A DNA stretch of 35,827 nucleotides, from NCBI GenBank assembly GCA_024274695.1, contig JAJSAI010000026.1:1-35827 (forward strand), read 5' to 3'. The position numbers and the translations under genes are program-made. Below, piece after piece: positions 15,809 through 25,416 of this stretch. Under the pieces are notes generated by a model, which worked only from the letters and a program-made list of their open reading frames with translations, searched no databases and was not told where the DNA came from. Source of the DNA: an archaeon (GTDB taxonomy: Archaea; B1Sed10-29; JAJSAI01). Each line of letters starts with the position of its first letter. Within the stretch, counting starts at the first letter, position 1.

Positions 15809-16411
15809 TTGGACTACGAGACTCTCAGGAGACTTCAGAGGACTGAAAGGAACAACGCTGACCTGGCCAGTCTCCCGGAGGACTTTTACACCCAGCTCGC
15901 CGAGTACATAAACTCTCTGGTGAAAGAGTACAAGAGGACAGGCTCTCCTCAGGACATCATGAAACTGGAGAACGTGATCAAGATATCAAAAGACATATTC
16001 CAGAGAAGGTCTCAGAAAATGCTCTTGCACGCTCTGAGGACTCTGAAAGAGAACAGCAACAGCGCGCCCGAGCTCGTTGAAATAGAGAAAAAATGCTATC
16101 GGGACATTGTCAGCAGTCTGGAGGAAATGAACGGCGAGTTCGAAAAAGTGCTTACTGGAGAAAGGCCTGTTCTGGGCACCGAGGCCGCGGAAGAGGCGAG
16201 CAAGGCCCTGGAGAAAATAGAGGAGATTGGAGAGCCTGCGGGCGAAGAACAAACTTTAAATAGTGTTCTGGTGAGAATACTACAAAACGTTCCGAAATTC
16301 GTTTCCTCTGACATGCAGGAGTACGGGCCTTTCCAGCCACGCGACCTGGTAAGGTTGCCTGAAAAAGAGGCCAGGCTCCTGATAGAAAGAGGTTTTGCGG
16401 AGAAGGTGTAA
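15809..16411 (+). CDS. GINS complex subunit (Gins15/Gins51 type)
   Basis: LASLPEDFY helical A-domain, then VRILQNVPKFV...YGPF...DLVRLP..EA.LLIERG.AE B-domain; follows priS. Confidence 0.9.
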   Translation: MDYETLRRLQRTERNNADLASLPEDFYTQLAEYINSLVKEYKRTGSPQDIMKLENVIKISKDIFQRRSQKMLLHALRTLKENSNSAPELVEIEKKCYRDIVSSLEEMNGEFEKVLTGERPVLGTEAAEEASKALEKIEEIGEPAGEEQTLNSVLVRILQNVPKFVSSDMQEYGPFQPRDLVRLPEKEARLLIERGFAEKV

Positions 16412-16431
16412 TTTGTTATTTTTATCCCGCT

Positions 16432-17580
16432 TTAATTAACTTCCTCCTCTAAAAAAGTAGACACCTTAAATAATGCTTCATCTAGATCGTTCAGTTCTTG
16501 TTCCCCAATGTACATATTTAGCGGTAACAGGACAACTCTTTTATGAATTTCTTCTGCTTCAGGAAATCTTTTATTTTGCCATGAGGATGAAAAGAGAGGG
16601 TGTAAATGATAAGGGATGTACCAAGGTTGTATTGGGATTCCTTCCATATTTAGAGCCTTGATGATGAAGTTTTTTAAAGACGGTTTTACTTTTAGATAAA
16701 TAGGTAAAAGATGCACGGCAAAACGAGTACATTGTTTGGGCACTATAAATTGGTTTGAATATTTTTTAAAAATGTTTCTAATTTTTCTACCTGTATTCTT
16801 TCTGTATTTTATTATTTCTTCCATTCTTTCTAGGTGCAGGATGCCCAATAAGGCCTGAAATTCACTGATTCTGAAATTGTAACCTTTTATTACAGTATTT
16901 CCACGAACTTCTCCGTAGTTTGTTATAACCTCTATCTTTCTAGCGTACTCTGTATTATCTGTTATAATTGCTCCTCCTTCCCCAGTTGATAATATTTTGC
17001 CTTCATAAGTGCTAAAGCAAGAGATATCCCCAAAAGTCCCTACAAGTTTTCCATGTACTTTATTGCCAACAACCTGAGAGATGTCCTCTATTAATGGGAT
17101 TTCAAACTCTTCTTTAATTTTGGTGAACTCTACGATCCTTTCAGAGGGGTAGAATAAATGGACGGGTAGAATTGCTTTATTTTTGTTTTTCTTTGACAAT
17201 ATATTCCTAGTTTTTTTGGGATCGAGAAAGGGGTCTTCTAGACCTGAGACATCTGAAAATATTACTTTTTTGTTAACGTTAACAATCGCGTTTGGAGTAG
17301 AATGAGTTAACGGAGATGTTATGATCTCAGATGATTTTATAGATTCAAGCGCTACCATCAGGGCTGCTACTCCAGAGGAGGTTGCTTTAGCATACTTAAC
17401 ATCAAAGAATGAACGTAATAGTTCTTCATATTCTTTAGTTTTTTTACCGTGTTTAGAACTAAATCTTCTAGTTTTTAAGAGTTCAATGAACTTTTTTTCA
17501 TCTGTCTCTTGAAGATAAGTCATAAAAATTGGGAAGGCTTTCTTTCTAACAGGTTCTCCTCCGAAGATTGCCAATTTCAT
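16432..17580 (-). CDS. DegT/DnrJ/EryC1/StrS family PLP-dependent sugar aminotransferase
   Basis: KLAIFGGEPVR N-terminus, TSSGVAAL, AILPVHL, LIEDISQ, CFSTYEGKILSTGEGG (PLP Lys), GYNFRISEFQA. Confidence 0.92.
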   Translation of the reverse strand: MKLAIFGGEPVRKKAFPIFMTYLQETDEKKFIELLKTRRFSSKHGKKTKEYEELLRSFFDVKYAKATSSGVAALMVALESIKSSEIITSPLTHSTPNAIVNVNKKVIFSDVSGLEDPFLDPKKTRNILSKKNKNKAILPVHLFYPSERIVEFTKIKEEFEIPLIEDISQVVGNKVHGKLVGTFGDISCFSTYEGKILSTGEGGAIITDNTEYARKIEVITNYGEVRGNTVIKGYNFRISEFQALLGILHLERMEEIIKYRKNTGRKIRNIFKKYSNQFIVPKQCTRFAVHLLPIYLKVKPSLKNFIIKALNMEGIPIQPWYIPYHLHPLFSSSWQNKRFPEAEEIHKRVVLLPLNMYIGEQELNDLDEALFKVSTFLEEEVN

Positions 17581-18395
17581 AATATTTCCTCCATCGCCTC
17601 GTGAATAACTTGAAGTTCCTTATAGCTTGGTAAAACGGTTTGAGTCGTACTTTTTAAGAGGGAGCAGTGTGCTTGGGTTGTTAGATAAAACCATCTGTTA
17701 GTTTTGGAACCATTTATATTTAAGGAATCCAGTATCATTTCTTTTTTATTGCCTTTTTTAGATTTGTATTCAAATAAGATTTGATCGTTATCCTTGTGTT
17801 TTAAAACAATTTTAATATCTTTATTATCTTTAGTCGTAAAAGCATATTCTTTAATATATTTCTCTTCTTTTTTGTGATGGAATGTAACACCTTCCGGAAA
17901 AATATAACAGAGAACATCAACAGGATGACAGATGATATCCCTAATAGTTGTATCTTCATAAAACATTTTGGTAGTGAAGTATGTGATCCTAATTTTTTGT
18001 GGAATATTTTCTTTTATTTTTTGCACAATCGGAAGTAGTCTCCAATTATAGTTTCCATAAATTTTTTTGGCAATATCTTTTGAAATGTTTAGTAACTCAT
18101 GTCTATTCGAGCATACTGGTTTTTCGCATAAGATCACTTTTGCACTCCTTCCATAAGTTTCCAGAATTTTTTTGTGAGTTGAAGTAGGAGTTGCAATGAT
18201 AAGCAAGTCTGGTTTCTTTATGTGGTTGTTTAGGGGTTGCTTAAAATTTATTTTTTTAAACTCCTCCAACTTTTGCGTATCTATATCTGCAAGTTCTATC
18301 TCTTTAATTTCAGGGTTTAAAAGCGCTGCTAAAAAATGTATTTTTCCGATGTTTCCTATACCTATTATCTTTACGCTTGATTTCTTATCCAACAT
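17577..18395 (-). CDS. Gfo/Idh/MocA family NAD(P)-dependent oxidoreductase
   Basis: IIGIGNIGKIH Rossmann motif, IATPTSTH, ILCEKP, D..CHPVD. Confidence 0.88.
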   Translation of the reverse strand: MLDKKSSVKIIGIGNIGKIHFLAALLNPEIKEIELADIDTQKLEEFKKINFKQPLNNHIKKPDLLIIATPTSTHKKILETYGRSAKVILCEKPVCSNRHELLNISKDIAKKIYGNYNWRLLPIVQKIKENIPQKIRITYFTTKMFYEDTTIRDIICHPVDVLCYIFPEGVTFHHKKEEKYIKEYAFTTKDNKDIKIVLKHKDNDQILFEYKSKKGNKKEMILDSLNINGSKTNRWFYLTTQAHCSLLKSTTQTVLPSYKELQVIHEAMEEIL

Positions 18396-19372
18396 AATGG
18401 GTCCTTTCCGTCATCTTTAATCGCGGCTCTGCATCCTCCGTAACACATGTAAAAGTATGGGCACCCCTCGCATGTTTTAGGGTGTTGATTTCTCCATTGA
18501 ATGAAAATAGGGTGATTTTGGTAAATTTTTTCTACGATGTTATACTTGTCAAGCAAAAAGTTATCCTTGTCTTCAGAGTAGGGGGCAGTAGTGCATGGGA
18601 CCATATATCCGTTTACCGTAATACTGGCAGAAATGAACCCTGCGCCACATCCTAAGACGCAAGAAGATGATTCCCTTTTAGGAGGGGTTGTTAACAAAAA
18701 TTCAAAAGGACTTTTTAATATTTTTATATTTCTTGATTTTCTTTCTTTTATTAATTGAAATAATACTTTTTTGTATTCTTCTTTAGTGATTTGAAATTTT
18801 TTCTGAAATTTATTTTTAGGGATAAAACGCATTATTCTGAAAGAAGGAACCCCTCTTTCTTCTAGAAAATCTAGTAGTCTAAATACTTCTCCGTTTTGTA
18901 TAACTTTCTTTGTAAGGATAGTTCCAACTACAAATTTTTTATTTTTTTCAATTAGCTTTTCTATTCCTGAAAGTGTAAGATCAAAGCTTCCTTTTCCTCT
19001 AAAATATTCATGTGTTTCTTTTAATCCATCTAAACTTATTTGGATTCTATCAAAATGAAGTAAGGAATCTATCCTCGAATTATCAATGAGTGTTCCATTT
19101 GTAGTGATGCTTGCTATCCCCTTTAATTGATGTATCTTCTTGACAATTTTATCAAGATCGTGCCTTAGTAAAGGTTCGCCTCCAGATAAATGAACTAAAT
19201 TTCCTGGTTCAACAGTCTTTTCTAAAATTTTTATTATTTCAGCAGTTGAAAGTTCTTTATTGTTTTCTTTCTTTATTTCATGAAAGTAAAAATAGCAATG
19301 TTTACATTTTAAATTACATCTTGAAGTAATATCTATAAACCACATGACAGGTCTAGGCAAAATCAAATACAT
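18371..19372 (-). CDS. Radical SAM/SPASM enzyme (PqqE/MftC/NirJ-like), no fused RRE
   Basis: ITSRCNLKCKHCY, SGGEPLLR, TTNGTLI, QISLDG..ETH..FRG.GSF, SPASM CGAG....I...G...PC...CEGC.....CYGGCRA...DPLC. Confidence 0.93.
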   Translation of the reverse strand: MYLILPRPVMWFIDITSRCNLKCKHCYFYFHEIKKENNKELSTAEIIKILEKTVEPGNLVHLSGGEPLLRHDLDKIVKKIHQLKGIASITTNGTLIDNSRIDSLLHFDRIQISLDGLKETHEYFRGKGSFDLTLSGIEKLIEKNKKFVVGTILTKKVIQNGEVFRLLDFLEERGVPSFRIMRFIPKNKFQKKFQITKEEYKKVLFQLIKERKSRNIKILKSPFEFLLTTPPKRESSSCVLGCGAGFISASITVNGYMVPCTTAPYSEDKDNFLLDKYNIVEKIYQNHPIFIQWRNQHPKTCEGCPYFYMCYGGCRAAIKDDGKDPLCWIRNQA

Positions 19373-19376
19373 TAAG

Positions 19377-19412
19377 TTTAAATATTGGTTATTTCATCTA
19401 TTTAAATGGTGA
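19377..19412. promoter_or_regulatory. Divergent archaeal-type promoters (two TTTAAATA boxes) plus GGTGA SD for the peptide
   Basis: TTTAAATA on + at 19377-19384 (peptide) and on - at 19399-19406 (about 26 nt before rSAM ATG); GGTGA at 19408-19412. Confidence 0.6.
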
Positions 19413-19417
19413 TTATT

Positions 19418-19507
19418 ATGAATAAAAAAAAGATTTGGGAAACACCTACAATAGAAGAAATAGATTTAACATTATATTGTTGTACCCCTACTGATGATGA
19501 AAAATGA
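19418..19507 (+). CDS. Putative RiPP precursor peptide, 29 aa: MNKKKIWETPTIEEIDLTLYCCTPTDDEK
   Basis: Hand-translated, not in ORF track; GGTGA SD; WxxPxI leader motif resembling RRE-binding motifs of PqqA and lasso leaders; sits in the middle of a cluster with PqqD, rSAM and peptidase; in-frame upstream ATG at 19406. Confidence 0.8.
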   Translation: MNKKKIWETPTIEEIDLTLYCCTPTDDEK

Positions 19508-19540
19508 ATACTTTTAATAACTTTTAAATCATTTTTGTTT

Positions 19541-20641
19541 TTAAAGAGAATATATTTTTTGATACTCTTTTACTGTCCTTTGAATATCAAATTGAGAGAG
19601 TACCCTTTTTCGTGCACCTTTTTCTATTTTTTGTTTAATTTTTATATTTTTTTCTAAAAAAAGAATATTTTTAATTATCTCTTTGGGTTTCCCAGGATGG
19701 ACTAGAACCCCAGACTTGAAATGAGTGATAATCTCTGGAATTCCACCAACTTTTGATGCAATTACTGCTTTTTCTGATGCCATGCCTTCTATTACTGAAA
19801 TGCCAAAAGGTTCTTCCCAAAGTGAAGGGACTAAAGCATAGTCTGAGATATTATAAAAATAAGGGATGTACTTGTAATCAAAGGGTCCGAAAATTATTCG
19901 GTCTAATAATGGATCATTAGCCCATTTTATAGATGAGAGAACTTTTTGTGTTTTATGAGCACTCTCGTTTCCGGTCAAAATAAGCACGAACTCTTGTGGG
20001 AGTTGTTTTAATGTTTTGATTAGAATGTCTACTCCCTTTTCTGGAGAAATTCTAGATGTACAGAGGAGAATTCTTTTTTCCAAGAAATCACTATTTAACA
20101 TTTTTGAAATTTTTTCAAAACATTCAAATTTATCTCGCTTTTTGAAAAGAGAAGTATCTATTCCATTATAGATTACTATAATTTTTTCAGAAGGGATAAT
20201 CTTTTTTAATTCAATTTTTATATACTCGCTTGGAACGACTATCTTTTTTAAGCATTGAGATTCATTTAATAATTTGAATACTGGTTTTAATTCAAGGTAG
20301 ACGGGAGTGTGATGGGAATAAATAATCTCATAGTTTTTGCTCCCAAATGTAGTGATTATAAAAAACGCAAAATCAATGGTGTGTATTTGAATTATATCCG
20401 GTGATATCTCATTGATAATTTCGCTAATAATTTTTTTCGTTTTCTGATAATCTAATGGTCCCCTTGATGGGAGGGGCAAATGATAACACTTCCCGGTTTT
20501 TTGAATGGTTGAAACGTTATCATCACAGAAGGCGATAAAATGCTTGTTTTTTTTGTCAGAGTTTGTAAGATTGTAAAGAAGAGTTTCGACGCCACCTATC
20601 GTGTTTGCATAGTCTCTAGTTAAATGTAAAACTTTTTTCAT
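19541..20641 (-). CDS. Glycosyltransferase family 4 (GT-B)
   Basis: IGGVET, VIYNGID, SRISPEKGVD, PSLWEEPFGISVIEGMAS, SKVGGIPEII. Confidence 0.93.
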   Translation of the reverse strand: MKKVLHLTRDYANTIGGVETLLYNLTNSDKKNKHFIAFCDDNVSTIQKTGKCYHLPLPSRGPLDYQKTKKIISEIINEISPDIIQIHTIDFAFFIITTFGSKNYEIIYSHHTPVYLELKPVFKLLNESQCLKKIVVPSEYIKIELKKIIPSEKIIVIYNGIDTSLFKKRDKFECFEKISKMLNSDFLEKRILLCTSRISPEKGVDILIKTLKQLPQEFVLILTGNESAHKTQKVLSSIKWANDPLLDRIIFGPFDYKYIPYFYNISDYALVPSLWEEPFGISVIEGMASEKAVIASKVGGIPEIITHFKSGVLVHPGKPKEIIKNILFLEKNIKIKQKIEKGARKRVLSQFDIQRTVKEYQKIYSL

Positions 20642-20642
20642 A

Positions 20643-21590
20643 TTAAAAAAATTCTTTTATTTTTCTTTTAAATAATTTATATTCTTTATTTATTCTTTTG
20701 TAATATTTTATTTTTACTTTTTTTATTTTTTGTTTGTAAAATTGATAATTTTCTAAAGTATCTGTTATTTTTTCTTTCCAACAGCAAATATTATTTATTT
20801 TTTTTACTAATAATTCTTTTGGAACATAATCAGGAATTCCTCCTATATCACTTCCTAGAACTGGTATTTCATTTACAATTGATTCTATACATACACGAGG
20901 AGAAGGATCTTCCCATAATGATGGAACTAGAGTTATTTTGGTTTTTTCGTAAATGAATTTTATTTGATTGTATTGTACAGGTTCCAAAATTTTGACATTT
21001 TCAAAAGGGAATTTTGGAATATTTTGTGTGGTGCTTTTTTTTATTATTAAAAAATTTTTGTCTGGATTATTTTTTATCAGTTTATAGACGATTTCTGCGC
21101 CTTTTTTTAGGGAGGGGTTAATAAATGTTATCCATTTTTGCATGCTATCATCTTTTTTGTTATTAATTACCTCTTTTGAAATAATCATTGGTTCCAGGAG
21201 AATACTCTCTTTACTTATGTATGAATATTTGTTTTGTGTGTACTTTGAATTAAATACGATTACGTCTGCTGAGTTATTTATATCATTGACTCGGGTGAAG
21301 AAAAAAACAGGAATTTTTTGCATTTTTCCATATTCGATCGCATATTTTGCCCACGCTAGTTGAGTGAAAATGATACTAGGTTTTATTTTTTTTAACATTT
21401 TTTTGATATTACTTGGGTGAATTATTTCATAAATTTTGATATTATCAATTTTTTCAGGTCTTTTCGGATGAATAAATGTAAGTACAGAACAATCATATCC
21501 ATCTTTTTTTAACTTTCTTAGGAGAGTATGTGCACTTATTTCAGAACTTCCTATTCTTGGTAAGTATTGTTCAGAAATGAAAAGTATCAT
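20643..21590 (-). CDS. Glycosyltransferase family 4 (GT-B), second copy
   Basis: ILFISEQYLPRIGSSE, FINPSLKKG, LVPSLWEDPSPRVCIES, SDIGGIPD; start moved to ATG 21590. Confidence 0.88.
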   Translation of the reverse strand: MILFISEQYLPRIGSSEISAHTLLRKLKKDGYDCSVLTFIHPKRPEKIDNIKIYEIIHPSNIKKMLKKIKPSIIFTQLAWAKYAIEYGKMQKIPVFFFTRVNDINNSADVIVFNSKYTQNKYSYISKESILLEPMIISKEVINNKKDDSMQKWITFINPSLKKGAEIVYKLIKNNPDKNFLIIKKSTTQNIPKFPFENVKILEPVQYNQIKFIYEKTKITLVPSLWEDPSPRVCIESIVNEIPVLGSDIGGIPDYVPKELLVKKINNICCWKEKITDTLENYQFYKQKIKKVKIKYYKRINKEYKLFKRKIKEFF

Positions 21591-21665
21591 CAATAATAAA
21601 AAGGAAAATAATACATAAATAAAAGTATATGTTTTTATAAAAATTTCAAAGGAGGTGCGAAGATA

Positions 21666-21917
21666 ATGCCTTGGAAACCAAAAGTAAACGAAAACATACA
21701 AATAAAAAAAACGGAAGAGGGTGATATTCTTATAGATATTCTTTCAGGTAAATTATTTAAATTAAATAATACAGGTTCAGATATTCTTCATTTATGTAAT
21801 GGAAAAAATGAAATAAATATGATTGTCTCTCAACTTCAGAAAAATTATGATAAAGTAAAAGAAGAAGAAGTAGTATCTTATCTAGAGAATCTAAAAAGGA
21901 TAGGGCTTGTAATATGA
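21666..21917 (+). CDS. PqqD family peptide chaperone / RiPP recognition element (RRE)
   Basis: 83 aa, three beta strands then LNNTGSDILHLCNG...IVSQLQKNY...V.SYLENL...GLV; GGAGGTG SD at 21651-21657. Confidence 0.9.
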   Translation: MPWKPKVNENIQIKKTEEGDILIDILSGKLFKLNNTGSDILHLCNGKNEINMIVSQLQKNYDKVKEEEVVSYLENLKRIGLVI

Positions 21918-22243
21918 GCTTTACTCAAGATGAAATGCGTTTGATTCGAAAAGCAATGGATCTATTTGAAGTGGTTTACTTTAAAGCGGTAGGTAACAGT
22001 ATGTTTCCTACTATCAAAGAAAATCAAATTGTAAAAGTAAAAAAAGTAGAATTAGATAAAATCAAAATTGGAGATATTTTAGTTTTTGAAGTTTTTGGAA
22101 GTATTATAGCACATAGGGTTGTACGTATAGAACATAAAAAATTCGGCCCTATTTTTATAACTAAAGAAGATAATTTTCAAAATTATCCATCTTCGAAATA
22201 TTTAATAGCAAAACCCGAAGATGTAATTGGGATAATATCTTAG
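21914..22243 (+). CDS. Soluble S24/S26 family serine peptidase (candidate leader peptidase)
   Basis: GNSMFPTI, IKIGDILVF, IAHRVV, FITKEDN; no TM helix; ATGA-coupled to the PqqD gene. Confidence 0.85.
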   Translation: MSFTQDEMRLIRKAMDLFEVVYFKAVGNSMFPTIKENQIVKVKKVELDKIKIGDILVFEVFGSIIAHRVVRIEHKKFGPIFITKEDNFQNYPSSKYLIAKPEDVIGIIS

Positions 22244-22253
22244 AATATTTAAA

Positions 22254-23996
22254 TCATTTTTTTTGAATTACATAATTGTTGATAATTAGATAATCCAATC
22301 CCATAGTATAAAAGTCTCTAATTGCATCTTTTAACGTTCTTACAATTGTTTTTCCCGCTATATTAAATGAAGTGTTCAATACAGCAGGAATTCCTGTTTC
22401 GTTTTCGAAGTTCTTTATTAATCTGTAGAACTTTTCATTATCTTTTGAATGTAAGATCTGTGGACGTGTTGTCTGATCTACATGCACAACCGCAGGGATT
22501 ATGTCGGGTGAGGATACAGACACAGTAAAGGTCATATATTTTAAAGCATGAAGTTTTTTGGCAGGGACTTCTAAGATTTTTAATGCTTTTTCTTCTAATA
22601 TTGTTGGGGCTAGTGGTCTCCACAATTCTCTTCCTTTTATTAGATTTACTCTTTTTTTGTTGCATGAAAGAGAAGGATTTGCTAAGATACTTCTGTTTCC
22701 CAAGGCTCGCGGTCCAACTTCCATTCTCCCTTGAAACCATCCTACTATTCTGTCTTGGCATAGGAGTTCTGCAGCATATCTTTCAGGATCTGGGACGTTC
22801 TCATAGGATATCCTTATTTTTTTGAGATAACTTTCGATTTTTTCATCGTGTTCTTCTTTTCCCAGGTAAGGAGTGAATGGATATGTATCTATCTCCTTTC
22901 CTGTTAACATTTCATATCCTATAATTGCAGAACCAAGAGCTGTACCATAATCTCCTGCAGTTGGAGGGGCGAAAAAGGCTATTTCGGGATACTTTCTCGT
23001 TAGGTAACCATTCAATCTGCAATTAAGAAAGAGGCCTCCTCCTAATGCAATATTTTCTATGTCCTCTTTTTCTTTTTTGAACTTTTGGATCAAGCTTTCT
23101 ATAATTCCTGAGATATATTCCTCAGTTATTTTTTGTACCGCCCAAGCTAGATTTTTTTGATGAACGGTAGGTTCGGCACAATTCTTAGAAATAGGTATTT
23201 TAGATGATAAAACAGCTAGAATTTGATTTGTTAAGTGATGTTTTGTAATTCTAGTAAAATCGAAAGTATCTTCTTTGGAGACGATCATTTCTTTGAATTT
23301 ATGGTAGATTTGAGACTCAGAGCCGTATGCAGAAAGACCCATCGTCTTTCCTTCGGATTTGAGCCATCCAAGACCAAGATATCCGGTAACATAGTGGTAT
23401 AGCATGGCAGGAGATTGCGGGTATTTTACGCTTAATATCTTTTCGAGGAATCCGTTTTCATATTTCCATGCTGTAAGTGACTCAAATTCTCCCCTCCAGT
23501 CTGAGATTATGACAAGTCCCTTTCTGAAGGGAGCAATCTTTGAGACTGCCGCAGCATGTGAGAGGTGATGGGGTACAGCTATAACCTGAGGTGGAGAGAA
23601 TGTATGGTTTTTGATCCACTCTTTCAGGGTCTTCAAACTGGAGACGTATCTTCTGTGTTCTTGTGAGAGGCGTCTAGTTAAAGTTATCAGTATCCTGTTT
23701 ATGTCTTTTGACCCTTCAATGAGGAATGGTTCCGCTTCTGAGACAACTCTCCGATTGAAAAGAGTTACATCCCAGGGTATAGTTATGGCTTCTACTTCAT
23801 CTAGGATAGTACCTGTTGTGGAGAGACAGAATGTTATGGACCCTGAGGGAAATGTTCTTTCGCTTCCTTTGATTCTTGTATGTCTCTCTTCTTCTTCCAT
23901 TGCTAATATTTTTCCGTTTTTTGATATGCAGGCTGAAGGATCATGGGTTCCCATGGACGGTAATGTTGGATTAATTCCTAATATCACTCCTTTCAT
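22254..23996 (-). CDS. NodU/CmcH/TobZ family O-carbamoyltransferase
   Basis: HDPSAC, EEERHTRIK, HHLSHAA, EGKTMGLSAYG, GGLFLNC, GRMEVGPRALGNRSILA, RELWRPLAP, VHVDQTTRPQ, LNTSFN. Confidence 0.95.
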   Translation of the reverse strand: MKGVILGINPTLPSMGTHDPSACISKNGKILAMEEEERHTRIKGSERTFPSGSITFCLSTTGTILDEVEAITIPWDVTLFNRRVVSEAEPFLIEGSKDINRILITLTRRLSQEHRRYVSSLKTLKEWIKNHTFSPPQVIAVPHHLSHAAAVSKIAPFRKGLVIISDWRGEFESLTAWKYENGFLEKILSVKYPQSPAMLYHYVTGYLGLGWLKSEGKTMGLSAYGSESQIYHKFKEMIVSKEDTFDFTRITKHHLTNQILAVLSSKIPISKNCAEPTVHQKNLAWAVQKITEEYISGIIESLIQKFKKEKEDIENIALGGGLFLNCRLNGYLTRKYPEIAFFAPPTAGDYGTALGSAIIGYEMLTGKEIDTYPFTPYLGKEEHDEKIESYLKKIRISYENVPDPERYAAELLCQDRIVGWFQGRMEVGPRALGNRSILANPSLSCNKKRVNLIKGRELWRPLAPTILEEKALKILEVPAKKLHALKYMTFTVSVSSPDIIPAVVHVDQTTRPQILHSKDNEKFYRLIKNFENETGIPAVLNTSFNIAGKTIVRTLKDAIRDFYTMGLDYLIINNYVIQKK

Positions 23997-24135
23997 GATT
24001 TCTCCTCTAAATCTTTTGATCTCTTTTATAGATTCAGTCGTTGAGCCTATAAAATAATGGGTTCTTTTAATGTATTAATTTTAAGAAAGAAAGCTTATTA
24101 AACTAAATAATTCACAAAAAAGAAAGGTGTTGAAG

Positions 24136-24435
24136 ATGGAAATTCCAAGGAGTATAAGAACTTATTGTCCGAAATGTAGAGTTCATACGGTACACAGGGT
24201 AAAAAAGGTTATACAGAAACACAGTCCTGATCCCGCTAGAACTCTCTCGTGGGGTCAAAGAAAATTTATAAGGCGTACGAAGGGTTATACAAGTCAGCTG
24301 GCTGCTAAAAAGGACCACGTTAAACAGTCCCAGAGGAACGTGCTACTCCTGGAATGCTCCCAGTGCAAGAAAAAGCAGCAGAGAACAGTTGGGGGCAGGA
24401 CCAGGAAAAAAATAGAACTAAAGAGAGGAGCGTGA
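24136..24435 (+). CDS. rpl44e: 50S ribosomal protein L44e
   Basis: IP..IRTYCPKCRVHTVH.V, WGQRKF.R...GY, LECSQCKK; alternative starts at 24127/24130. Confidence 0.95.
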   Translation: MEIPRSIRTYCPKCRVHTVHRVKKVIQKHSPDPARTLSWGQRKFIRRTKGYTSQLAAKKDHVKQSQRNVLLLECSQCKKKQQRTVGGRTRKKIELKRGA

Positions 24436-24441
24436 TCCCAG

Positions 24442-24612
24442 ATGCTGGCCCCGAAAACCAATTTTGTTAAAATAAAGTGCGAGTGCGGTAACGAGCAGAT
24501 CACCTTCTCGCACGCCAGCACGACGGTGAAGTGCAGTGCGTGCGGCAAAACCCTCGTGGAGCCCACGGGAGGCAAGGCGAAGATAAACGCCACAATAATA
24601 AAACTCATGTAA
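24442..24612 (+). CDS. rps27e: 30S ribosomal protein S27e (56 aa)
   Basis: Hand-translated MLAPKTNFVKIKCECGNEQITFSHASTTVKCSACGKTLVEPTGGKAKINATIIKLM; conserved position after rpl44e. Confidence 0.95.
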   Translation: MLAPKTNFVKIKCECGNEQITFSHASTTVKCSACGKTLVEPTGGKAKINATIIKLM

Positions 24613-24636
24613 AAAGGTAACGAGGAGGACTTAATT

Positions 24637-25416
24637 TTGAAAATAGAAGAATGGCCGTCACCAGGAGAGTTGGTCGTAGTAAAAATAAAACAGATACTCC
24701 CTGGAACAGGCGTGAAGGCTGATTTGCTGGAGTACCCTGGAAAAGAAGGGTTCATCCACATTTCTCAGGTGGCAAGGTCATGGGTGAAAAACATACGCAG
24801 CTTTGTTTCCGTAGGCTCGATGAGGGTCGCGGCTGTTGAAAGAGTAAGACCAGAAGACGGGATCATAACACTCTCGCTTAGGAAGGTTTCTCCACAGCAG
24901 CAGAAGCGGAAGATGGACGACTGGAAGAGGGAGAAGAGAGCGGACAAGATGTTTGAAGCCATGTGCAAGGACCTTGGAGAGGATTTCGTTCAAGCGTATC
25001 ACAAGGTCGCGGTCCCCCTCATAGACGAGTACGGTGACCTGCTCGCGGCGTTCGAGAACGTCAAGATCCACGGGGACAGCGCCTTTGAAGGAATAAAGAT
25101 ACCCAAGAAATGGAAGGAGAAAATAAAGGAATTCGCGGAAAAGAATATTACCATAGCAAAGGTGTCCGTGGAGTCCAACGTCCGGATGGTCTTCAAAACA
25201 GGGAATGGGCTGGAGTTGCTGAAGAAAGCACTCTCCACGGCCGAAAAACAGGGCGTCAGCGTGCTCTACCTCGGCGCGCCCAACTACAAGCTTAAAGCAG
25301 AAGCCCACTCCTACCCTGAAGCAGAGGAACTTCTGAACAAGGCCATAAGCAAACTTGAAGAGTTCGTGAAAGCGCATGACGGAGAAATCTCCCACGCAGA
25401 AGCCCAGGCTTCCTAA
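24637..25416 (+). CDS. eif2a: Translation initiation factor 2 subunit alpha (aIF2-alpha)
   Basis: WPSPGELVV, LLEYPGKEGFIHISQVA..WVKNIR S1 domain, WKREKRA, YLGAPNY. Confidence 0.95.
   Translation: MKIEEWPSPGELVVVKIKQILPGTGVKADLLEYPGKEGFIHISQVARSWVKNIRSFVSVGSMRVAAVERVRPEDGIITLSLRKVSPQQQKRKMDDWKREKRADKMFEAMCKDLGEDFVQAYHKVAVPLIDEYGDLLAAFENVKIHGDSAFEGIKIPKKWKEKIKEFAEKNITIAKVSVESNVRMVFKTGNGLELLKKALSTAEKQGVSVLYLGAPNYKLKAEAHSYPEAEELLNKAISKLEEFVKAHDGEISHAEAQAS

Follow-up and report, generated by a model that had tools for sequence, protein, structure and literature searches.

The window analysed here is a stretch of 35,827 nucleotides (nt) of archaeal DNA (contig JAJSAI010000026.1, assembly GCA_024274695.1). 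The host genome is 825 kb in 32 contigs and is 91% complete. Flanked by the genes for GINS, both primase subunits and eIF2-alpha, the window carries an island of low guanine plus cytosine (GC) content. The genes of the island are, in order, a DegT-type aminotransferase, a GFO/MocA oxidoreductase, a radical S-adenosylmethionine (SAM)/SPASM enzyme, a short open reading frame (ORF), two glycosyltransferases, a PqqD protein, a peptidase and a NodU-type carbamoyltransferase. The short ORF, at 19418-19507 on the plus strand, is the subject of this work. It is absent from the gene calls and merits addition to the annotation, as we predict that it is very probably a real gene. We give a probability of about 0.55 to a fuller reading, in which the ORF encodes the precursor of a RiPP (a peptide synthesized ribosomally and then modified post-translationally). 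A PqqD-family RiPP recognition element (RRE) would bind its leader, the radical SAM enzyme would modify its C-terminal part and a signal peptidase I (SpI)-like peptidase would cleave it. What was observed directly is the ORF with its leader motif and coding-like codon usage, a gene set inherited together, and the recurrence of the module in other archaea. The features needed for the argument are as follows.

19418..19507, plus strand: candidate precursor peptide gene, 29 amino acids (aa) and a stop codon; proposed from its sequence, its codon usage, a match to the PqqA leader and a motif common to four other loci
19408..19412, plus strand: Shine-Dalgarno-like GGTGA, 5 nt 5' of the ATG at 19418
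18371..19372, minus strand: radical SAM/SPASM enzyme, 333 aa, presumed peptide modifier; no N-terminal RRE; CNLKCKHC at residues 19-26
21666..21917, plus strand: stand-alone PqqD-family RRE, 83 aa; PF05402, E value 6.6e-11, 42.8 bits against a cut-off of 23.4
21914..22243, plus strand: archaeal-type SpI-like (Sec11/SipW-type) serine peptidase, 109 aa, presumed leader peptidase; PF00717, 26.4 bits against a cut-off of 23.3

Translation from the ATG at 19418 gives MNKKKIWETPTIEEIDLTLYCCTPTDDEK, with the stop codon TGA at 19505-19507. An alternative in-frame ATG at 19406 would extend the peptide to 33 aa (adding MVII). The leader takes up residues 1 to about 17. It has a KKK stretch, followed by W7-E-T-P10-T-I12-E-E-I15-D-L, which reads as W7xxP10xI12xxI15. 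The C-terminal part is LYCCTPTDDEK, and the peptide contains no serine. The GGTGA upstream has a counterpart at the island PqqD gene, whose ATG is preceded by AGGAGGTG; Shine-Dalgarno-like sites are thus in use among the island genes. Two A/T-rich boxes lie upstream of the ORF (TTTAAATA at 19377-19384 and ATTTAAAT at 19400-19407). They are not distinctive, since the GC content of the gap is 21%, and they could equally be attributed to the divergent radical SAM gene. A scan for promoters and terminators around the ORF gave nothing better than shuffled sequences did, and Rfam has no matches within 16000-24800.

The ORF takes 102 nt of a gap of 168 nt between the radical SAM gene (18371-19372, minus strand) and the first glycosyltransferase gene, of type GT4 (19541-20641, minus strand). 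This gap is the sole intergenic space inside the island; the remaining genes overlap or abut. Coding potential was scored as the mean log-odds per codon, with a table trained on the eight genes of the island. The ORF scores 0.48 per codon, compared with 0.29 ± 0.14 for in-frame windows of the island genes and −0.10 ± 0.15 for stop-free off-frame windows, none of which attains the value of the ORF (0 of 1683). Among 5000 stop-free shuffles made from the same 87 nt, only 10 do so. None of the island's other ATG ORFs in the range of 22-45 aa (20 with the candidate) scores as high, the runner-up being at 0.098. Searched against the 18950 models of NCBIfam, the peptide has a single match, to PqqA (TIGR02107; E value 0.049-0.066; 13.2-13.6 bits, below the cut-off of 20). 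Residues 7-17 of the peptide align with positions 1-11 of that model. As a control, every ATG ORF of 22-45 aa that the window contains (68 in total) was scanned in the same way, and the only one to match any NCBIfam family at an E value of 1 or less is the candidate ORF.

These results bear on an alternative in which an A/T-rich spacer, holding no more than the glycosyltransferase terminator and the promoter of the radical SAM operon, contains the frame by chance. The RRE and the peptidase would then have a substrate peptide from some other gene, or no peptide substrate at all. An ATG ORF of at least 29 aa is present in about 10% of shuffles of the gap, and the length of the ORF is therefore not significant by itself. 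The ORF is antisense to the gene on either side, and room is also needed in the gap for the radical SAM promoter. Eight consecutive A (19424-19431) would be oligo-T on the minus strand, after the glycosyltransferase gene. The strict leader motif has a background of 25 in 10153 small ORFs across this genome, and no homologue of the peptide was found in the searches described below. Chance does not readily account for the codon usage or for the one family match among 68 small ORFs, which falls on the PqqA leader. It would also have to explain why the same motif lies in the same kind of position at all four other loci with PqqD and an SpI-like gene, and the island offers no other intergenic room for a precursor. 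We consider a chance frame to be distinctly improbable.

The leader motif agrees with what is published for discrete RREs. Those of lasso peptides and of linear polyphosphorylated peptides (LPPs) are described as binding [Y/W]xxPx[L/V/I/F/A] (PMC13381572), and W7-E-T-P10-T-I12 of the island peptide fits this motif. The best NCBIfam match of the island PqqD protein is to PqqD of the pyrroloquinoline quinone (PQQ) type (39.6 bits against a cut-off of 46). PqqD is rare in the phylum, with 1 of 31 genomes above the cut-off. A profile of six SpI-linked archaeal PqqD proteins matches the lasso RREs TbiB1 (E value 9.1e-10), PbaB1 (PDB ID: 9x90; 2.5e-9) and TfuB1 (4.6e-7), and LppB of the LPP system (PDB ID: 9x8z; 1.6e-6). 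The same profile is weaker on PQQ-type PqqD (E values 1.2e-4 and 0.07). The predicted complex of the PqqD protein with the peptide scores 0.57, compared with 0.02 for the best control, a result that may reflect no more than likeness to solved complexes of this kind (9x8z, 9x90, 5v1u and 6jx3). Contacts agree between prediction runs to at least 98%, and the predicted local distance difference test (pLDDT) of the partner is at least 61. The mark used for such predictions is attained by 51 of 78 solved complexes and by 2 of 108 mismatched pairs; with a score of 0.60 or less, just 5 of the 78 solved complexes attain it, along with all four passing mismatches. An AlphaFold2 model of the PqqD protein, made from an alignment of two sequences (mean pLDDT 51.6), has three strands followed by helices. 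This is compatible with an RRE and proves nothing. The PqqD protein itself starts M-P-W-K-P-K-V (window positions 21666-21680). Its W-K-P is kept in the relative with 80% identity, and the spacing is unlike that of the leader motif. PqqA starts with W-x-K-P, which the W-K-P start of the PqqD protein resembles.

The SpI-like gene adjoining the PqqD gene, which leads to the most similar system described so far, was overlooked in the earlier note. The best NCBIfam match of the 109-aa protein is archaeal signal peptidase I (TIGR02228), at 48.1 bits just below the cut-off of 51.85. It aligns with human SEC11A/C over GNSMFP, AHRV and TKEDN, and this alignment points to Ser29, His67 and Asp86 as residues of catalytic type. 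All three are invariant in its relative with 82% identity. The protein has no membrane segment or anchor.

The closest known system is that of the LPPs (Popov et al., Nat Commun 2026; PMC13381572). As described there, LPP clusters encode a discrete RRE (LppB), a SipW-like SpI (LppS), an HprK-like kinase, a nucleoside triphosphate (NTP) transferase and an exporter, and they lie in capsule or glycosyltransferase-rich loci. LppS has the catalytic residues S29/H68/D93 and was shown by experiment to cut after T-1 only with LppB presenting the [Y]xxP leader (PMC13381572). The precursors are 35-200 aa long, with the consensus YxxPxVLxHQxIxFETxxS and a phosphorylated Ser at core position 3 (PMC13381572). 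According to the same paper, SpI-like peptidases were undescribed in RiPP pathways before, and the LPPs are restricted to Bacillota. In the available text of that paper radical SAM enzymes are not mentioned, and the word 'Archaea' is confined to 'archaeal-type' and the title of one reference. Our literature search found, among the papers listed, no other one linking an SpI-like peptidase to RiPPs with radical SAM enzymes; the supplementary homologue lists of the LPP paper may hold archaeal or radical SAM-linked members. Predicted RiPP clusters have been reported in general terms for DPANN archaea (PMC12144867).

The island and the LPP clusters share a discrete PqqD-family RRE that adjoins a short archaeal-type SpI, with the triad S29/H67/D86 in the island and S29/H68/D93 in LppS. 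They also share the leader [Y/W]xxPx[aliphatic], a setting of glycosyltransferase and sugar genes and a patchy distribution that suggests horizontal transfer. They differ in that the host of the island is an archaeon and the island has a radical SAM/SPASM enzyme. No HprK-like kinase is present among the island proteins, and a search of the 91% complete genome found neither HprK_rel_B nor ScmC. The island lacks an NTP transferase (PF14907) and an MsbA-like exporter; one borderline match to PF14907 is on contig C17. The leaders differ as well. The island leader has Trp and not Tyr, a residue that determines which RRE binds [Y/W]xxP (PMC13381572). Only WxxPxI and, with W7 set at -16, the aromatic Y20 at -3 can be matched to the LPP consensus, and the peptide has 29 aa compared with 35-200.

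We searched 401 archaeal genomes for the same arrangement. The PqqD family was present in 84, and matches to the island peptidase in 104, mostly ordinary signal peptidases. A PqqD gene and an SpI-like gene lie within 3 kb of each other in this genome (G000) and at four other loci: G246:C5 (L059), G400:C1 (L061), G271:C9 (L062) and G095:C1 (L063). At each of the four, an intergenic ORF of 29-47 aa adjoins a radical SAM gene, and [WY]xxPx[IL]xx[IL] comes early in its sequence. The peptides are the following.

G095 peptide: MKKKKYKKPSIKKLSIKAARGATGIATNV
G400 peptide: MKYEKPEIKKLN...
G271 peptide: MTYEKPAIKKLN...
G246 peptide: ...RKREYHTPSLEPLDKL...

The motif was found in 8 of 4040 small ORFs (15-100 aa, from 56 sequence sources), five of which are the archaeal precursor ORFs. 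One of the other three was retrieved by the pattern search itself, one (L060) is off-frame in a longer ORF and one lies at L059:1065-1187. The motif alone proves nothing. Its presence in that position at four of four loci carries weight. The peptidases of this genome and G246 have 42% identity (E value 5e-19), and the PqqD proteins 34% (E value 3e-9). The earlier note had proposed a short precursor with an RRE-type leader and had named a conserved peptide beside homologous clusters as a check. The proposal is supported by the fit of W7xxP10xI12 to the binding motif, by the sole NCBIfam match, to positions 1-11 of the PqqA model, and by the motif at the homologous clusters; the conserved peptide was found there, at the level of the leader.

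The other archaeal loci resemble the island in having glycosyltransferases nearby. They also have HprK/ScmC-like kinases, and those of family f55 (G400, G271 and G095) have NTP_transf_5, all of which the island lacks. The C-terminal parts of their peptides are unrelated to that of the island peptide. The radical SAM enzyme beside the peptide is similar to the YydG epimerase in f55, and to PapB/SCIFF enzymes with long extensions in G246 (best match PapB, 128.8 bits). B12-type radical SAM enzymes are present in the G246 and G095 loci.

Some further observations concern these and related loci. The clusters L059, L061, L062 and L063 bear LPP hallmarks together with radical SAM enzymes and [Y]xxPx[IL] precursors that lack annotation. 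In f55 the precursor ORF has as neighbours proteins of some 320-336 aa (L062 7879-8847, L063 6465-7475), which match no Pfam family and have an N-terminus similar to that of lipoproteins. A genome of the same order (G009:C24, L029, 7958-9405, minus strand) has a cassette of three genes, which encode a 51-aa ORF with a Cys-rich tail (CLGCHCKCAPTGKC), a radical SAM/SPASM protein of 331 aa and a PqqD-like protein of 82 aa. The leader of the L029 ORF has IEELDLS, close to IEEIDLT of the island peptide (BLASTP E value 0.010); it has no [WY]xxP motif, and the cassette has no SpI-like gene.

The radical SAM enzyme of the island has the CxxxCxxC motif and eight further Cys residues at 238-327 with SPASM-like spacing. 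Its NCBIfam matches are all far below the cut-offs (TIGR04133, 126.7 bits; ScmE, 111.9; PapB, 111.7; PqqE, 85.7). Among solved structures, the peptide maturases SkfB and CteB are closest to the enzyme. PapB is described as targeting a Cxxx(D/E) motif (PMC12715619), and C22-T-P-T-D26 in the peptide is such a motif. The score with the PapB-family model NF047865 is 111.7 bits, and the cut-off is 340. Across the archaeal loci, C-terminal parts that bear Cys pair with SPASM-type enzymes (this locus and G246), and Cys-free ones with YydG-like epimerases (f55). By analogy with PapB, the likeliest chemistry would be a radical SAM thioether from Cys22 (or Cys21) to Asp26 or Asp27; we put this forward tentatively, at somewhat less than even odds. 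At similar odds, the oxidoreductase, the aminotransferase and the carbamoyltransferase may make a sugar that bears amino and carbamoyl groups, which the two glycosyltransferases would attach to Thr or Cys. Thioethers at Cys and glycosylation at Thr or Cys, both raised in the earlier note, are compatible with the peptide sequence and with the genes present. The sugar genes of the island may equally be the mere typical neighbourhood of such clusters.

The context of the radical SAM gene allows another explanation, in which the ORF is a real precursor for the RRE and the SpI-like peptidase, perhaps glycosylated, and the radical SAM/SPASM enzyme has some other substrate, such as a nucleotide sugar, on which it acts together with the oxidoreductase and the aminotransferase of its operon. 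Translation links the radical SAM gene to those of the sugar enzymes: it overlaps the oxidoreductase gene by 25 nt, which in turn overlaps the aminotransferase gene by 4 nt, so that its product could have a sugar as substrate. PqqD and the peptidase are encoded in an operon apart from it, on the opposite strand. The enzyme lacks an RRE and falls outside every defined maturase family, and its Pfam SPASM match reaches 17.8 bits against a cut-off of 21.5. Its weaker matches in the PDB include cytosylglucuronate decarboxylase, which acts on a sugar (E value about 9e-7). As described, LPP-type clusters need no radical SAM enzyme (PMC13381572). A role in peptide modification is favoured by the radical SAM gene directly adjoining the small ORF at all four other archaeal loci, and by the best relatives in the PDB and NCBIfam being the peptide maturases SkfB, CteB, PapB and ScmE. 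A stand-alone PqqD with an RRE-less SPASM enzyme is, moreover, the PqqD/PqqE arrangement (PMC10906245). We regard a sugar substrate as unlikely.

The PQQ pathway supplies a third alternative. The island and PqqA/PqqD/PqqE share a very short precursor, a stand-alone PqqD, a radical SAM/SPASM enzyme without an RRE and an acidic residue four before Tyr. The earlier note had read D16xxxY20 as an Asp analogue of the ExxxY motif of PqqA. The radical SAM enzyme would then link Asp16 to Tyr20, to give either a peptide with this cross-link or a small molecule resembling a cofactor. The spacing of D16-L-T-L-Y20 is that of the Glu16-Tyr20 pair cross-linked by PqqE (PMC10906245), PqqA is the only family that the peptide matches, and PQQ-type PqqD is the best NCBIfam match of the RRE. 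That proposal is not supported. The match to PqqA is below the cut-off and confined to the leader, away from the Glu/Tyr part. The enzyme is no orthologue of PqqE, reaching 85.7 bits where the cut-off is 381, and the QxYxW triad (as given in PMC10906245) is absent from it. PqqB and PqqC were not found in the 91% complete genome, a negative that is unvalidated for PqqC, whose control was positive in 0 of 14 control genomes. The island differs from the PQQ system also in having Asp in place of Glu, an SpI-like peptidase and sugar genes. Lasso- and LPP-type RRE binding, as published (PMC13381572), accounts for the [W/Y]xxP motif, and both D16 and Y20 would probably be lost along with the leader if the cut follows LPP or PbaA spacing. 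We consider a PqqA-like product very improbable indeed, and the PQQ pathway itself was rejected.

Two other RiPP systems were compared. The lasso B1-type RREs (TbiB1, TfuB1/FusB1 and PbaB1) share with the island the [Y/W]xxPx[L/V/I/F/A] leader motif, and they match the archaeal PqqD profile. A lasso peptide was rejected as the product. The island encodes neither a macrolactam synthetase (Asn-synthase-like) nor a B2 cysteine protease (transglutaminase-like), and no lasso fold is therefore expected. With the PapA/PapB (freyrasin) ranthipeptides the island has in common a Cxxx(D/E) in the C-terminal part, and PapB is among the three best NCBIfam matches of its enzyme. PapA has six such motifs compared with one here, the RRE of PapB is fused to the enzyme whereas that of the island is separate, and the leader type and the peptidase differ. 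By its defining features, the island peptide is outside the LPP, PQQ, lasso and PapB families. It resembles the RRE/SpI part of the LPP system with a radical SAM maturase added.

In our preferred reading of the ORF as a RiPP precursor, the stand-alone PqqD-family RRE would bind the leader through W7, P10 and I12 and then present the peptide to a pair of enzymes. Of these, the radical SAM/SPASM enzyme (18371-19372) would modify the short C-terminal part. The soluble SpI-like Ser/His/Asp peptidase (21914-22243) would remove the leader in an RRE-dependent manner as in the LPP system, from which we infer this step. The position of the cut can be estimated from the published spacing, in which Tyr is at -16 in LppA and Trp at -15 in PbaA (PMC13381572). 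By this spacing the cut would fall after C22 or C21 and leave a core of only 7-8 residues, (C)TPTDDEK. Applied to the five archaeal peptides, the -16 rule puts a small residue at -1 in each (C, G, T, S and S), an observation that is post hoc and made on non-independent peptides. Under the same rule Y20 of the island peptide would be at -3, a position occupied by Phe in LppA. The whole Cxxx(D/E) motif would stay in the core if the cut came after C21.

Relatives of the 29-aa peptide were looked for in representative sequences, phylum genomes, metagenomes and viral contigs, and none was found in any of these searches. In a phmmer search of 1.84 billion representatives with the 33-aa form, there were three matches, all to long repeat proteins (in 14, 6 and 8 stretches), and they were rejected as spurious. 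Their E values, down to 9e-28, arise from summed weak repeats; multi-stretch matches to such short queries mislead. Among the 31 phylum genomes there were four non-self matches (E values 0.03-0.3), one in an ORF of 430 aa that we read as a tRNA nucleotidyltransferase, one antisense in an ORF of 460 aa and two in unremarkable frames, and none was retained. The metagenomes of JGI were searched with degenerate DNA for W-E-T-P-x-I, seven residues and Y-C-C. Six stretches matched, all of which we read as chance. Three are within frames of 384-655 aa, two are in frames of 65 and 110 aa that are otherwise unlike the peptide, and one has internal stops. In viral contigs the peptide pattern had no matches, and the SpI alignment had 81 pattern matches of which none was confirmed. 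The best score for the peptide in the ESM Atlas (0.82) is uninformative. A profile of the five archaeal peptides matched one irrelevant PDB chain (E value 0.72) and no solved leader chain.

The neighbouring proteins were treated likewise. The radical SAM protein matches one locus among the genome contigs (30% identity). The PqqD protein and the peptidase have one close relative each (80% and 82% identity, respectively), each on a contig of at most 1760 bp. These contigs are too short to reach the position of the peptide, and the two relatives are thus silent on it.

Besides the points already given for a chance frame and for a sugar substrate, several results weigh against our reading. The peptide has no relative in the searches above, and the best homologue of the radical SAM enzyme among 5.8 billion proteins has only 38% identity. 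Conservation is established for the leader motif only, and the gene itself is a singleton in accessible data. BLASTP gave no alignment of the island peptide with that of G246, so that their likeness is at the level of the motif only. The four other loci amount to two further lineages (G400 and G271 belong to one genus and G095 to the same family, f55; G246 is separate), which is a thin comparative base. For binding of the peptide by the PqqD protein, the complex prediction gives weak support. The LPP spacing would put one or both Cys residues in the leader, a poor fit with a Cys-Asp link unless the cut is made after C21.

The RRE, peptidase and leader logic, first described in 2026 for a family reported as confined to Bacillota, is now seen in archaea, on an island gained by horizontal transfer in a very small genome of 825 kb and in at least two other lineages. 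Each archaeal case is coupled to a radical SAM enzyme, instead of or besides a kinase. The system is compact, with four genes and a peptide of 29 residues, and one discrete RRE would serve both a radical SAM enzyme and a serine peptidase. The loci also give a rule for finding unannotated precursors: an intergenic ORF with [WY]xxPx[IL]xx[IL] beside a radical SAM gene. If the reading is true, the family extends across domains. A more speculative extension, which we hold to be rather doubtful, is that the product is among the smallest RiPPs, (C)TPTDDEK with a Cys22-Asp26 thioether and a carbamoylated amino sugar on Thr, and that RRE, SpI-like peptidase and [Y/W]xxP leader make up a portable cassette for delivery and cleavage. 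Archaea would combine this cassette with unrelated radical SAM enzymes (SPASM thioether-forming enzymes, YydG-like epimerases and B12 methylases), and the LPP family of Bacillota would be just one branch of a wider cross-domain class.

The limits of the island and its remaining genes are the following.

16413..24199, no strand: low-GC island, GC about 0.27-0.39, with about 0.52 on either side; inserted by comparison with a genome of the same genus
16432..17580, minus strand: DegT/PseC-like sugar aminotransferase, 382 aa
17577..18395, minus strand: GFO/IDH/MocA-type oxidoreductase, 272 aa; overlaps the end of the radical SAM gene (25 nt)
19541..20641, minus strand: GT4 glycosyltransferase, 366 aa
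20643..21701, minus strand: second, GT1/GT4-like glycosyltransferase; start codon uncertain, and the listed TTG start overlaps the PqqD gene
22254..23996, minus strand: NodU/CmcH-type carbamoyltransferase, 580 aa

In the genome of the same genus (G001), the GINS and eIF2-alpha genes are adjacent, and blastn joins window positions 16412 and 24200 across about 70 nt. The island is thus one insertion of 7.7 kb, whose genes arrived together. No integrase, tRNA or terminal repeat was seen in the island; no search aimed at repeats or tRNAs was made. An ORF of 155 aa at the right border (24294-24761, minus strand) has no Pfam or NCBIfam family and overlaps the listed TTG start of the eIF2-alpha gene. 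The DNA there is conserved in G001, which assigns this ORF to the host, outside the island. Elsewhere in the genome, a second radical SAM protein (C29:13200-13958, in a frame of 389 aa) has a weak N-terminal PqqD-like stretch (17 bits), and two more SPASM-type genes are at C30:11805-15192. The GC content of the island (about 0.32) is similar to that of the f55 loci with the same module (0.25-0.34).

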